Source of the DNA: Acholeplasmataceae bacterium
GTDB taxonomy: Bacteria; Bacillota_I; Bacilli_A; Acholeplasmatales; Acholeplasmataceae
Assembly: GCA_963675245.1 (NCBI GenBank)
Contig: OY775910.1
Location: 608,001-672,000, forward strand
Reading direction: 5' to 3'
DNA: 64,000 nt
Shown here: positions 25,340 through 29,540 of the stretch, one piece after another
How positions within the stretch are numbered: position 1 is the first letter of the stretch
Layout of the letters: every line of letters begins with the position of its first letter
The notes under the pieces: model-generated
The model's input: only the letters and a program-made list of their open reading frames with translations
Database searches by the model: none
Told to the model about the DNA's origin: nothing
Translations under genes and position numbers: made by a program

Positions 25340-26974
25340 TTATTTTTGATAACTGCTCTTTAGTGGCACAGTTTCATTAAACACAAGACTACCTTGTGTT
25401 GTATCATCGTCAGTTGTGAAATATCCAATTCTCATAAACTGATATTTATCTTGAATCTTTGTGTCTTTTAATGCTGCTTCAACAAACCCATGTTTAATTT
25501 CTAAAGAATCTTCATTAAATCGATCCATTAATTCGCTTGATTCATCTTCTGATAACATTGGTTGATAAATATTAAATTGAGCTGGTACCCCTTGGGTAGC
25601 CTCTACGAAATGGATAGTCCCATTAGGTTTACGCGCATCAAAGCCTGATCCACTTCTTGTTTCTGGATCGTAGGTTGCTAACACTTCGATAATGTCACCA
25701 TCGCTGTTATACTTAACATCGACAGCTTTGATAAAATAAGCATAAAATAATCTTACTTCGCCACCTAAATAAAGTCTTTTGAACTTTTTGTTAGGTTTTT
25801 CTAATGCGAAATCATCTTTTTCAATGTAAATATGTTTTGAAAATGGTATATCTCTACTGCCAAATTCTGGATGTTCTTTGTGATACTCTTCATTGAAATA
25901 TTCAATTTTTCCATCAGGGTAATTTGTAATAGTGACCTTTAACGGATTAATCACGGCCATCACTCTGTTAGCTTTATCTGATAAATCGTTTCTAACAGCT
26001 GCTTCAAGCATATCTGCGCCAACTGTAGAATTTACTTTTGATAGTCCTGTGGATAAAATAAATGTTTTAATGGCATCAGGTGTGTAACCGCGACGACGCA
26101 TACCTGATAACGTAGGCATTCTTGGATCATCCCAACCTTTGACCTTCCCTTGTTCCACAAGAGCACGTAAAAATCTTTTTGATAAAACTGTATTTTCGAT
26201 ATTTAATCTGCCAAACTCGATTTGTCTTGGTTGAGCAGGCATATCTGTTTCTCTTACGAACCAATCGTAAAGTGGTCTATGATCTTCAAATTCAAGTGAA
26301 CATAATGAGTGTGTAATGTATTCAACTGCATCTTCTAATGGATGTGCAAAATCATACATTGGGTAAATTACCCACTTGTTACCAGTTCTGTGGTGCTCAG
26401 CATGTACAATACGATAAACAACAGGATCTCTCATGTTCATGTTGGGTGAAGCCATATCAATCTTGGCACGTAAAACACATTCACCTTCAGCAAATTCACC
26501 ATTTTTCATTTTGTCGAATAATGCTAAATTTTCTTCAATGGATGTATCACGATAAGGTGAGTTCTGTCCCGGTGTTGTTACATCACCACGCGTATTAGAT
26601 ATCAATTCTGCTGATTGGAAATCAACATATGCTAATCCTTTTTTGATTAAAATGATGGCACGCTCATACATTTCTGTGAAATAGTCAGAAGCGAAAAGAA
26701 TATGTTTAGGATCATAACCCAACCATCTAATGTCTCTTTCGATTGATTTGACATACACATCATCTTCTTTTTCTGGATTTGTGTCATCATATCTCAAATT
26801 TGTATATCCACCAAAGTATTTTGCTAGTTCAAAATTAGTCACAACAGCTCGTGCATGACCAATATGTAAGAACCCATTGGGTTCTGGTGGAAAACGTGTT
26901 ATGATTTTGTCGTGTTTTTTAGATTCAAGATCATTTTCAATGATTGTCTTGATGAAATTTGATTGATTTTCCAT
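25340..26974 (-). CDS. glnS: Glutamine--tRNA ligase
   Basis: TRFPPEPNGFLHIGH, HSLCSLEF, VLSKR, GWDDPRMPTLSG. Confidence 0.96.
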   Translation of the reverse strand: MENQSNFIKTIIENDLESKKHDKIITRFPPEPNGFLHIGHARAVVTNFELAKYFGGYTNLRYDDTNPEKEDDVYVKSIERDIRWLGYDPKHILFASDYFTEMYERAIILIKKGLAYVDFQSAELISNTRGDVTTPGQNSPYRDTSIEENLALFDKMKNGEFAEGECVLRAKIDMASPNMNMRDPVVYRIVHAEHHRTGNKWVIYPMYDFAHPLEDAVEYITHSLCSLEFEDHRPLYDWFVRETDMPAQPRQIEFGRLNIENTVLSKRFLRALVEQGKVKGWDDPRMPTLSGMRRRGYTPDAIKTFILSTGLSKVNSTVGADMLEAAVRNDLSDKANRVMAVINPLKVTITNYPDGKIEYFNEEYHKEHPEFGSRDIPFSKHIYIEKDDFALEKPNKKFKRLYLGGEVRLFYAYFIKAVDVKYNSDGDIIEVLATYDPETRSGSGFDARKPNGTIHFVEATQGVPAQFNIYQPMLSEDESSELMDRFNEDSLEIKHGFVEAALKDTKIQDKYQFMRIGYFTTDDDTTQGSLVFNETVPLKSSYQK

Positions 26975-26995
26975 AATAACATGTAAGATTTAAAG

Positions 26996-27190
26996 TGTAT
27001 TAAGTTAGTTACTTAAGTCTTTAAATCTTTACTCCTTTCGTTCTAATTTAATATACTAATAATGTACTGTGGATCTGTGTCATATTTTTATAACCTAGAC
27101 TATTTTGAGGTGACGCTTACCACGGTCTTTATTTTAATCAGCAATAGTTAGTTAGCGGAAGACGCTTTTTACATGATTATGAGATAAAGA
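26996..27190 (+). ncRNA. Putative IS110 bridge RNA (boundaries approximate)
   Basis: Two stem-closed loops (ACTGTGG/CCACGGT; TCTTTAT..TAATC/GATTA..ATAAAGA) containing matches to the target flank and both IS ends. Confidence 0.8.
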
Positions 27191-27239
27191 CGCTGCTGGA
27201 CTTACCACACGTACAAATTTAATTCTTGGAGGTGTACTT

Positions 27240-28400
27240 ATGATCTATATCGGCATCGATATTTCAAAGTACAAGCATGACTGTTTCATCGCCACCGAAA
27301 CAGTTAGCCATCAGTTCTCATTTGAGAACAGTCAGTCTGGGTTTAAAGAACTATTAGGATACTTTAACTCTTTAGTCAAGCAAGAAATGATAATAGGCTT
27401 AGAGGCCACAGGTCATTATGGAGAAAACCTTAAGTCATTTCTTATCCTCCATGGATATTCATTCATGGAGATTAATCCTTTTCTCGTGAAGAAGTTTGGA
27501 GAAGCCCATTCACTGAGAAAAACAAAGACGGATAAGAAAGATGCACAAATGATTTCAACTTATATGAGATCTGTAGACTACAAAGCCTATCATCATCAAT
27601 CTTATCATATAAGTGCTTTAAAATCACTGACCAGGTTACGTTTTAAACTCATCTCAATTCGGACGAAACACTACAATATGATGACCAAGGTCTTAGATGT
27701 CATCTTTCCTGAATTCAAACCTTTTATGCAAGAACAAGGCTATAGTGATACATCTTTATACATCTTGAAGCGCTTTTCATCACCGGATAAAATAGCAAGG
27801 ATGACTGATGACCACTTCGATAAGCTTCGTAAACGATCGATGGGTAAATTCAATTATCCGAAGTTTGTTAAACTGAAGGAACTCGCAAAATCAACCATTG
27901 GTGTGACACAAGATCATCAACTATTCAAACTTAAGACTTCAATTTCTTATGTTGAGAAACTCAATCAAGATATCGAAGAAACTGAGAAACAGATCACTTC
28001 TTTAATGCATCGATATCCAACTAAGATTCAAACCATTAAAGGTATCGGAATCATTTCAGCAGCTGTCATCGTTTCAGAATATGGTGATATTTCACTTTTC
28101 TCCAATCCCGCTGAAATGTTATCCTATGCAGGTCTGGATTCAACCATCAGACAGTCTGGCACCATGTCTTCAACAGGTAAACTGGTTAAACGTGGCAGCA
28201 AGTACCTAAGAGCAACACTCATCAATATCTCAATGATGGTTATGATCTATAACCCCGTCTTCTACGACTACTACACCAAGAAGAAACAAGAGGGTAAACA
28301 TCATCGTGTCGCACTGGTTCATCTTTCAAAAAAACTCATTAGAGTCATTCATCATCTCGAAACACATCAGGAAGATTTTGATTCCTCTAAACTACAATAA
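27240..28400 (+). CDS. IS110-family transposase (DEDD RuvC-like plus Transposase_20)
   Basis: YIGIDISK, LEATGHY, KTDKKDA, YAGL....RQSG, KRGSKYLR; SD GGAGGTG. Confidence 0.96.
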   Translation: MIYIGIDISKYKHDCFIATETVSHQFSFENSQSGFKELLGYFNSLVKQEMIIGLEATGHYGENLKSFLILHGYSFMEINPFLVKKFGEAHSLRKTKTDKKDAQMISTYMRSVDYKAYHHQSYHISALKSLTRLRFKLISIRTKHYNMMTKVLDVIFPEFKPFMQEQGYSDTSLYILKRFSSPDKIARMTDDHFDKLRKRSMGKFNYPKFVKLKELAKSTIGVTQDHQLFKLKTSISYVEKLNQDIEETEKQITSLMHRYPTKIQTIKGIGIISAAVIVSEYGDISLFSNPAEMLSYAGLDSTIRQSGTMSSTGKLVKRGSKYLRATLINISMMVMIYNPVFYDYYTKKKQEGKHHRVALVHLSKKLIRVIHHLETHQEDFDSSKLQ

Positions 28401-28539
28401 TTGATTCCTTAAACTGTGGCGGTTAAGTCATAAAATCATCCAGTTATATGGCTAACCTCTAAAAATTATGGCTATTGGAGGTTTTTACAGTTTATCTACT
28501 AAAAGTACTTGACTTTTAATAGTTAGTCACCTCAAAGTT

Positions 28540-28548
28540 ATTGTATCA
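28540..28548 (-). promoter_or_regulatory. Probable native glnS promoter (extended -10), now separated from the gene by the IS
   Basis: Minus-strand TGA-TACAAT just upstream of the displaced SD GAGGTG. Confidence 0.55.
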
Positions 28549-28604
28549 TATTTTCGTTTGAAATTATGTTGCTATCATAAAGAAAAATACCCCGAAAGGA
28601 GTAT

Positions 28605-29540
28605 CTATTCTTCGTCGTTTATTTTAACATATTTTTTATTTTTAACAAACCGCTTTAGTGCAAAATCCACTGGATCAAGTCCCGTGTCTTTGACAATTCG
28701 TTCATAAAACATTTGTTTTTGTTCCGCCGTTCTATGCTCTAAATTCAGGATTGATTGAACTAAATGATGTTCAAATTGTTCTTGATCTCCTAAACGTTGA
28801 TGTGCTAATGCTTTGTAGTAGTGGAAATAGTCTAATAAGTAGTGCATATAATATGCTTCGCATTTTTCAATAGCGATGTTACACATTTCAACCACTTCTT
28901 CGTATTGCTCATTTCTTCCAAAGTTTTTAATCATCCAGAAATAAACGCGATATTCTGCAGTCACATTTCCACCCAAAGAGTGTCCCTTATCTCTCAAAAT
29001 ATCATACAATTTTTTTAGAATTGATTTCCTATCCTTATCGCTATATTCCATTAGAATTCCGAGCATGTATATTTCATCATCAGGGAAAGCTGATTTTTTC
29101 ATCACCCTTGGGTAATCAAGCATTTTATATATTTCGTTAATTAAATCTTCTTTTCTGATTCTTCCGGATTGTAAATCTAATATCAATTTAGAACTTCTAA
29201 ATAAATTCTCGTTAACTGTACTAATAAACACATGACTCTTCATCTTTTGATAATTTTCATACGCTTGAATGCCTTGATTAGAAGCAACCAAATTAAAAAA
29301 ACTTAAAGTGCTTTCGATTTCGTTAGCAAATTCATCGTCAAATTGATCAAGTAAACTAATAATCGAAATATTTAATTTTTCAGCAAATCTAGTAATTACT
29401 TCAAACGGGATTTCGCTTTCACCGCTACGATAGCGATAATATTGACGCTGTGATATAATACCGTCTAAGTAGTTCTCCTGGGAAATTTTTCGATCATATC
29501 TTAAATTTTCCATAAAATTTATTAATTTTAAGCTGTCCAT
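28605..29540 (-). CDS. Rgg/PlcR-like (RRNPP) HTH-TPR transcription regulator
   Basis: N-terminal XRE-type HTH (LRYDRKISQE...ISQRQYYRYRSGESEIP); C-terminal TPR-like helices (YEEVVEMCNIAIE...LLDYFHYYKALAHQRLGD); SD GAGGAG. Confidence 0.8.
   Translation of the reverse strand: MDSLKLINFMENLRYDRKISQENYLDGIISQRQYYRYRSGESEIPFEVITRFAEKLNISIISLLDQFDDEFANEIESTLSFFNLVASNQGIQAYENYQKMKSHVFISTVNENLFRSSKLILDLQSGRIRKEDLINEIYKMLDYPRVMKKSAFPDDEIYMLGILMEYSDKDRKSILKKLYDILRDKGHSLGGNVTAEYRVYFWMIKNFGRNEQYEEVVEMCNIAIEKCEAYYMHYLLDYFHYYKALAHQRLGDQEQFEHHLVQSILNLEHRTAEQKQMFYERIVKDTGLDPVDFALKRFVKNKKYVKINDEE

Follow-up and report, generated by a model that had tools for sequence, protein, structure and literature searches.

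In a 64,000-nt stretch of the genome of an Acholeplasmataceae bacterium (positions 608,001 to 672,000 of contig OY775910.1, forward strand; hereafter the window, whose numbering is used throughout), an insertion sequence (IS) of the IS110 family lies between glnS, the gene for glutaminyl-tRNA synthetase (GlnRS), and its own Shine-Dalgarno (SD) sequence. The end of the element that faces the glnS start codon, its left end, carries an outward-facing SD motif and, between this motif and the codon, a hairpin. From comparative evidence we conclude that this left end is probably a portable split ribosome-binding site (RBS), as in genes 25 and 38 of phage T4. This reading is the best supported because the motif is complementary to 16S rRNA and is conserved where host genes lose their SD, because the spacing predicted after folding equals the mode of the genome, because essential genes are concerned, and because solo remnants of the module are found in other genomes.

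The minus strand of the window holds a complete glnS (25340–26974), an intact open reading frame (ORF) of 544 aa whose product matches Pfam tRNA-synt_1c (E = 3.9e-99) as well as both C-terminal anticodon-binding domains, and starts with MENQSNF, an N-terminus common to relatives. Its ATG occupies 26974–26972. The host genome, a single contig of 1,626,300 bp, contains four copies of the element that are 99–100% identical, and alignment of their flanks showed that the copies diverge beyond GAGGTG at one junction and beyond CATG at the other. On the gene strand the copies are followed by TTATT, ATTAT, ACTGT and ACTAT, and then, in 4/4 cases, by an ATG start codon. The genes concerned are glnS, an E3 gene that immediately follows E2 in a 2-oxoacid dehydrogenase operon, a gene for a small unknown protein and a GDSL lipase gene. 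In the closest relative (G006, GlnRS 88% identical) the site is uninterrupted (...tacaataactgtGAGGTGTTATTATGGAAAAT) and the empty site GAGGTGTTATTATG reads GAGG-TG-TTATT-ATG. The limits of copy identity together with this empty site therefore define the element as 26980–28527 on the plus strand, 1548 bp with one copy of the core counted. The core dinucleotide is TG on the gene strand (CA on the plus strand) and is duplicated at both junctions, at 26980–26981 and again at 28528–28529. The element ends, ACTAACT... and ...CTTACA, are unrelated to each other, that is, there are no terminal inverted repeats.

Only a 5-nt remnant of the native SD-start spacer is left beside the glnS ATG (TTATT on the gene strand, 26975–26979, minus strand), as seen both from the flanks that differ among the four copies and from the G006 empty site. 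The native SD GAGGTG, whose last two bases are the duplicated core, now lies at 28533–28528 on the minus strand, 1.55 kb from the ATG, and the native extended −10 element TGaTACAAT at 28548–28540, likewise 1.55 kb upstream on that strand; the same promoter motif precedes the empty sites in G006 and G005. Among 13 relatives, 12 have (G)AGGTG or GGGTG 5–8 nt before the same glnS ATG. In the thirteenth (G009, GlnRS 77% identical) this very glnS site is occupied by a diverged related element, which looks like an independent hit because closer relatives have empty sites. The identity, target and boundaries of the element are settled. An earlier note on this DNA, made from the sequence alone, had placed the IS between the SD and the start codon of glnS, with the native SD and a TG-n-TACAAT promoter displaced by 1.55 kb, and had asked for the empty allele in relatives; the copy flanks, the G006 site and the 12/13 relatives bear it out on all these points. 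It had also reconstructed the excised site. The return of GAGGTG to the vicinity of the ATG stands, whereas the TA core and the sequence GAGGTG-ACTATT-ATG do not, the actual core being TG and the site GAGGTG-TTATT-ATG.

As a separate observation, the copy before the E3 gene (G000:C1 845499–847066, L002) sits inside an operon, where the TGA of the E2 acyltransferase gene overlaps the GAGGTG that served E3; E3 is now dependent on transcription that crosses the element or starts within it.

The outward-facing SD motif of the left end, GAAAGGAG, is located at 27032–27039 on the minus strand, and its consensus in homologous elements is AGAAAGGAG. The 16S rRNA of the host has the 3' end GGATCACCTCCTTTCTAAG, with the mature tail ...CACCTCCTTTCT. 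Read on the plus strand, the left-end consensus CTCCTTTCT is identical to the last 9 nt of 16S rRNA, and the gene-strand form AGAAAGGAG is its exact complement (9/9). In the left ends of homologues CTCCTTTCT appears as an island of conservation flanked by a hairpin and a spacer that both vary freely. Taken alone, GAAAGGAG is not above chance in the window (2 matches vs 1.33 expected); motif and fold carry weight because they are conserved across homologues, not from a single occurrence. No GGAG, GAGG, AGGA or AAGG 4-mer was detected between GAAAGGAG and the glnS ATG. In the host genome, an SD-like 4-mer stands at −18 to −5 before 675 of the 1027 long ORFs, compared with 76 of 1027 for control windows, and no SD hexamer is more frequent than AAGGAG (187/1027). 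Two other candidates were considered at this junction and rejected. A leader ORF coupled to glnS is ruled out by stops in all frames between the motif and the ATG, and the terminal ATG of the element (within CATG) is a poor start, since it is out of frame with the host ATG, precedes it by 8 nt and directly adjoins the helix.

The left-end hairpin covers 26982–27032 on the minus strand. Its outer stem (26985–26995 with 27019–27029) is a perfect 11-nt inverted repeat in which 2/11 pairs are G-C, and its inner stem (27000–27005 with 27011–27016) is formed by the arms TTAAGT and ACTTAA. Pairing of GTAA with TTAC extends the outer stem, with one bulge, to 26982–27032 (G19 pairs with C68 in the centroid fold). 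The distance from the outer stem to the glnS ATG is 10 nt, and the centroid fold leaves 8 nt between helix and AUG, so that the SD-to-ATG distance of 57 nt in the linear RNA is predicted to fall to 8 nt upon folding. For comparison, the commonest GGAG-to-ATG spacings in the host genome are 7 nt (90 genes) and 8 nt (92 genes), and the maximum is 18. The gene-strand fold is moderately better than that of shuffled sequences (z = −1.8; 8/200 shuffles fold as well). In 230-nt contexts the outer stem has a probability of 0.92–0.96 in all four copies, and GAAAGGA an unpaired probability of 0.77 for glnS (range 0.37–0.91 over the four copies). The parts from which the earlier note had assembled its proposal were thus all found: the motif at 27039–27032 on the glnS strand, the inverted repeat at 26985–27029 with inner TTAAGT/ACTTAA followed by 10 nt to the ATG, and no other SD near that ATG.

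A need for glnS expression follows from the gene content of the host. Apart from gltX, glnS is the only GlnRS-type match in the genome, and a GlnRS is present in 31/31 genomes. A search for GatB gave no match in the host genome (99.96% complete), the same search matching in 12/14 control genomes, and the absence of GatB implies that there is no amidotransferase route to Gln-tRNA. With a sole GlnRS and no GatB, glnS must be expressed. Since it must be translated, some signal has to start its translation; within 57 nt there is no candidate but the left-end SD. Four sequencing runs contain the locus, all as DNA assembly contigs of the same organism, whereas the RNA-labelled runs X18 and X20–X23 match only 0.06–0.07 of its sequence words; the contigs of three runs of one sample have the filled site and none has an empty-site joint.

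Homologous elements were collected by a scan of one genome per species, which returned 80 loci with transposases 47–91% identical, from Acholeplasmataceae, Izemoplasmatales and other Bacillota. The left terminus could be placed in 71/81 loci, the glnS copy included. Flanks of 150 nt or more are available for 57 loci, and in 47 of these an ORF of at least 45 aa starts no more than 22 nt from the left end, on the strand opposite to the transposase. The genes behind these homologues encode GAPDH, D-Ala-D-Ala ligase (Ddl), Era, Glu/Gln-tRNA synthetase, ThrRS, signal peptidase I, UppP and WhiA, and lipoamide dehydrogenase is found again behind a homologue. Two types can be distinguished by the core. 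Type I elements, which include the one studied here, have the core TG and a right flank CCTC or TCTCC, and the host gene loses its GGAG or GAGG. In type II elements the core is AG and lies inside the SD, and terminal bases and flank rebuild AAGGA or GAGG(AG) at the native distance.

The SD-like motif beside the hairpin is present in 43/45 type I loci and in 15/26 type II loci. The 11 type II loci without it form a subgroup in which GAGG or GGAG stays with the gene, and CTCCTTTCT is there replaced by TTCTTTCT. This distribution has the direction expected if the Cs were kept for the sake of the host gene. These subgroups are clades, so it reflects few independent events. The hairpin itself is kept in about 10 unrelated sequence forms. 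Taken with the 43/45 SD-stripping loci, this answers positively the question raised earlier of whether an AAGGAG-type motif plus hairpin is conserved in homologous left ends. Folded spacing was measured automatically at 26 type I loci. The terminal hairpin was recovered at 16 of them; two returned artefactual values (−3, 0) and eight no value, because other structures were favoured when the longer context was folded to minimum energy. Where it could be measured (16/26), the folded distance in the other type I subgroups is 6–8 nt, with the stem reaching the element end, or 11–16 nt.

Some loci of this collection deserve separate mention. In the AG-core sister subgroup, termini ..CAAG or ..CGAG join a flanking G, restoring AAGG or GAGG with the native spacing to the ATG; the left junctions concerned are L044, L052, L059, L062–L069, L071, L073, L075, L085, L087–L091, L093 and L097. 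Three loci from metagenome-assembled genomes of Izemoplasmatales (L072, L077 and L101) do not abut a gene start; their right flank is CACCCCT, then TTTACGCACCCCT repeats; a repeated element may be their target, or earlier copies may have left the repeats as scars. At L100 the right end is cut short and abuts an apparent tRNA gene on the other strand, and the left end is without an SD-like motif.

Pairing was further assessed in an alignment of the close group, made up of 20 active copies and 9 solo ones. Pairing is kept in 91% of the outer-helix cells, both sides have changed in four pairs, and the covariation score exceeds those of all 500 shuffles and of every slid control. G:U pairs can indicate the strand on which such a hairpin acts. 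Over 55 unique left ends they number 30 on the gene strand and 16 on the other, and in the close-group alignment, with the register fixed, 21 and 8 respectively. As ancestry is shared among these sequences, the wobble test is no more than suggestive of action on the gene strand.

A 71-nt query covering the module matched in 37/172 genomes of the family. The 39 loci examined comprise 22 full elements, 6 loci at contig ends, 2 weak partial matches and 9 solo remnants, the latter from eight other genomes. A solo remnant consists of GGAG, the hairpin and the terminus, then 4–8 nt and an ATG, with unrelated DNA starting 0–15 nt upstream of GGAG; in L126 this upstream DNA resembles a promoter, and in L152 and L153 it is where a preceding gene ends. 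Open frames lie behind 8/9 remnants (L130 precedes only 25 codons). Four of these genes are complete, with products of 245, 308, 242 and 189 aa, and four frames, one of them ProC-like, run without a stop for 97 codons or more up to where the retrieved DNA ends. All nine hairpins are still stable (−8.1 to −13.7 kcal/mol). For the gene behind the remnant in G005 (locus L108), the G000 orthologue is 81% identical and has a normal GAGGTG-TTCAAA-ATG; the G005 gene thus has no SD other than the module derived from the transposon. In this remnant 4/4 stem substitutions give G:U on the gene strand.

Together, these observations suggest the following course of events. An IS110-family element, guided by its putative bridge RNA, has the RBS itself as its target and recombines at the TG core between GAGG and the 5-nt spacer before the ATG. 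Insertion deprives the host gene of its SD, and the transposase is always antisense to that gene. In mRNA reading into the host gene, supplied either by the host promoter through transcription antisense to the transposase or by an outward promoter, the folded hairpin would bring the left-end SD to about 8 nt from the ATG and so form a split RBS. glnS and the other interrupted genes would stay translated and the insertion would be nearly neutral. After deletion of the element body the SD-hairpin module would remain as the only RBS of the gene, a pattern seen in the remnants, from which selection for the module is inferred. Structural replacement of the SD by a looped-out hairpin, as the earlier note had proposed, thus draws support from the empty sites, the conservation of motif and hairpin, the need for glnS and the nine solo remnants.

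Several points weigh against a split RBS. A promoter scan of the glnS strand near the left end flagged no outward promoter, and candidates found by eye were discarded for their poor −35 boxes; transcription must therefore cross the 1.5 kb antisense element. In many distant type I homologues the folded spacing of 11–16 nt reaches or exceeds the upper limit of what is normally used. Fold energies over the 55 unique left ends do not favour the gene strand, which is better in 24, worse in 29 and equal in 2, and 6 of the 21 gene-strand wobbles come from one column common to related sequences. The nine solo hairpins are more stable on the gene strand in 5 cases, on the other strand in 2 and equal in 2. 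The hairpin is likewise retained where a subgroup has lost the GG of its motif, and it thus probably has some role besides SD bridging; it probably serves the element itself as well, a second role that is compatible with bridging. As for the remnants, the deletion that makes them could be favoured mechanically by two GGAG repeats, and as a hairpin was needed for their detection, the way they were found partly accounts for retention of the module, which is no proof of selection.

The main rival explanation concerns just such a second role. The hairpin and the pyrimidine tract would serve the element on the transposase strand, as an insulator or weak terminator against read-in; the SD look would then be a by-product, and the host genes would be translated poorly or without an SD. 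We regard this as rather unlikely, and an insulator role on the plus strand as a candidate that may also coexist with a split RBS. A T/C-rich run does follow the hairpin on the plus strand in every subgroup, and where the motif has lost its GG the hairpin is kept and the tract is more T-rich (TTCTTTCT). Folding energies are equal on both strands. The −10 of the promoter formed at the circle junction (described below) overlaps the 5' arm, and because its start site is inside that arm, transcription from it would bypass the insulator hairpin. However, the conserved Cs (CTCC) are poor for a U-tract and yet match the 16S tail exactly, and a terminator scan does not call the hairpin, with its 2/11 G-C stem pairs and a tail that begins TACTCCTTTCG. 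Moreover, the flank in the inserted state is the 5' end of a divergent gene, so that read-in should be rare. An insulator also leaves unexplained the solo remnants with intact hairpins before intact genes, as well as the translation of essential genes with no SD within 50 nt in an SD-reliant organism (675/1027 vs 76/1027).

It is improbable that the plus-strand CUCCUUUC is an anti-SD which folds back on the transposase RBS and blocks translation of read-through transcripts, by the fold-back inhibition of IS10. Such a role would suit a pyrimidine-rich motif facing a transposase RBS of sequence GGAGGTG, and a position upstream of the internal promoter, which confines the motif to externally or junction-started transcripts. 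But the complementarity to the transposase site is only 4–5 nt, against 9/9 to the 16S tail. The transposase RBS is also constant where the motif has changed, which speaks against fold-back: the subgroup with TTCTTTCT still has AAGGAGGTG, and there is no co-variation. In addition, a strongly folded bridge RNA lies between the two sites, and solo remnants keep the motif with no transposase gene present. We find it very improbable that the inverted repeat and the motif are a DNA-level site for the recombinase or a host protein, needed in synapsis or excision. The 5' arm overlaps bases recognised by the donor guide UUACAUG and there is no clear strand preference across the whole set, but the arms are wholly different between subgroups with about 50% identical recombinases and the same CTCCTTTCT, so that pairing is conserved and not sequence; G:U wobbles are tolerated, and solo remnants keep the structure in the absence of a recombinase gene. 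Finally, we give hardly any credence to a glnS that is inactivated or barely expressed in this allele, with a coincidental resemblance to a split RBS, an outcome that the earlier note had held against its own proposal: the four copies are 99–100% identical, so that the insertion may be recent, and GAAAGGAG alone is not above chance in the window, but the single-contig, 99.96%-complete genome has a single GlnRS and no GatB, the ORF is intact, the contigs of three runs of one sample have the filled site and no empty-site joint, and another species carries a diverged related element at the same site.

Several known systems resemble parts of this arrangement. Insertion sequences with outward or hybrid promoters exist, and like them the present element has ends that would supply expression signals to a neighbouring gene; they supply transcription signals, whereas the conserved outward signal here is translational (SD plus hairpin). 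Insertion in one orientation between SD and start codon is described for IS900 and IS901 of Mycobacterium avium, also IS110-family elements, in PMC2942039 (citing Doran 1997 and Inglis 2003). The present element likewise occupies the SD-start interval in a single orientation, in 4/4 copies and in 47/57 homologous loci with enough flank. According to PMC8141618, targeting by IS900 is linked to expression of hed, an ORF of the complementary strand that borrows the host RBS. No hed-like ORF was found in our element, in which the only minus-strand ORF (27472–27627, 51 aa) is internal, and no ATG, GTG or TTG stands 5–10 nt after GAGGTG at the right junction. Unlike in IS900, it is the other end of the element that has the outward SD and hairpin.

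For the split RBSs of T4, passages of PMC3014915 give a spacing that hairpin folding shortens from 22 to 5 nt in gene 38 and from 27 to 11 nt in gene 25. In glnS, too, the SD is linearly far from the AUG and a hairpin is predicted to bring it near (57 to about 8 nt). The T4 sites are fixed in phage genes and proven by mutagenesis, whereas this one sits on a mobile element and its support is comparative. Formation of a promoter at the circle junction is reported for this family in PMC11187229. With IS110 and IS1111 elements that have bridge RNAs or seekRNAs (IS621, ISEc21 and ISEc11) the present element shares a DEDD recombinase, a putative two-loop 5' non-coding RNA with matches to the target and to both ends, a core dinucleotide and a candidate junction promoter. 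Unlike in IS621, ISEc21 and ISEc11, its target is the SD-start spacer of protein-coding genes, not REP, another IS or attC.

SD-start targeting and the hairpin-bridged RBS are each already known. A literature search that did not extend to Doran 1997 and Inglis 2003 returned no paper on an IS end supplying a replacement SD; nothing relevant to this appears in the consulted passages of PMC4607514 and bioRxiv 10.64898/2026.10.21.760802. The combination on a mobile element, the SD-rebuilding strategy of the sister subgroup and the domesticated remnants were likewise not found in print within that search, which left those two papers outside.

More broadly, and with doubt slightly outweighing confidence, we suggest that a clade of these elements in Acholeplasmataceae and other low-GC Bacillota may consist of translation-neutral parasites. 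Their guide would be aimed at the RBS, the SD would be repaired either by a split RBS or by a rebuilt GAGG/AAGG, antisense read-through would quiet the element, and modules would become domesticated. If so, part of the hairpin-containing translation initiation regions in these genomes would be of transposon origin. The reading would explain how the host survives an IS immediately in front of essential genes (glnS, era, gap, ddl), and it would bear on why IS900-type elements aim at translation start regions. If the left end is a split RBS, it would be the first hairpin-bridged RBS that is mobile and transplantable, an arrangement so far proven only for a few phage genes, and would mark a route from transposon ends to host translation signals. 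For bridge recombinase engineering, these elements may offer a natural family with a guide that reads the SD region and a left end that tolerates or provides downstream expression. Annotation is affected as well, since genes behind elements or remnants look RBS-less and may be mis-started or called pseudogenes.

The transposase (bridge recombinase, 386 aa) is encoded at 27240–28400 on the plus strand, antisense to glnS, and matches PF01548 (DEDD_Tnp_IS110, E = 4.9e-36) and PF02371 (Transposase_20, E = 4.7e-22). The 260 nt 5' of this gene fold into two stem-loops, no better than shuffled sequences (z = −0.72), and have the layout of a bridge or seek RNA (PMC11187229), for which we take 27068–27190 (plus strand) as a candidate on the basis of the fold and the guide matches. 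In the first loop the putative target guide UUUGAGGUG (27104–27112, plus strand) is complementary to the plus-strand right flank CACCTCAAA, which is the glnS SD, and the adjoining GACUAU (27098–27103) matches the consensus spacer. The second loop contains the putative donor guides AAUAGUUAGU (27143–27152), identical to the right end AATAGTTAGT, and UUACAUG (27169–27175), complementary to the left end CATGTAA, both on the plus strand. An Rfam search of 26900–28650 retrieved no family, the only hit being a chance snoRNA match (E = 0.44).

Joining the right end to the left end creates, at the sequence level, a candidate promoter TTGACT-17 nt-TAAGAT, which in homologues reads TTGACT-17-TATAAT. Its −35 half TTGACT lies at 28509–28514 on the plus strand and is kept as TTGAC(T/A) in homologue right ends; its −10 half TAAGAT, TATAAT in homologues, lies at 26984–26989 on the same strand. 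The promoter scan also detected an internal sigma-70-like promoter, TTTACT-18-TATACT (27028–27057, plus strand), a candidate for transcription of the bridge RNA, whose −10 keeps its position relative to the conserved ACTGTGGAT in homologues. Past the transposase stop, a hairpin AACCTC...GAGGTT followed by TTTTT (28454–28486, plus strand) is terminator-like on the transposase strand only; it is kept in close homologues and the terminator scan did not call it. Transcripts from the glnS promoter would not meet this hairpin in the terminating orientation.

Three further observations were made. The transposase RBS GGAGGTG-TACTT-ATG (27226–27242, plus strand) has the same form as the target GAGG-TG-N5-ATG, as it does in most homologues; in principle, one copy of the element could be the target of another. 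A second inverted repeat of 15 nt (26994–27008 with 27043–27057, 87% complementary) connects the loop of the left-end hairpin with the −10 region of the internal promoter and could form an alternative structure where the 5' arm is absent, for example in junction-promoter transcripts. Upstream of the native glnS promoter lies an ORF of 311 aa (28605–29540, minus strand) for which Pfam gives nothing at E ≤ 0.001; after it comes the one terminator-like site of the region (28606–28585).

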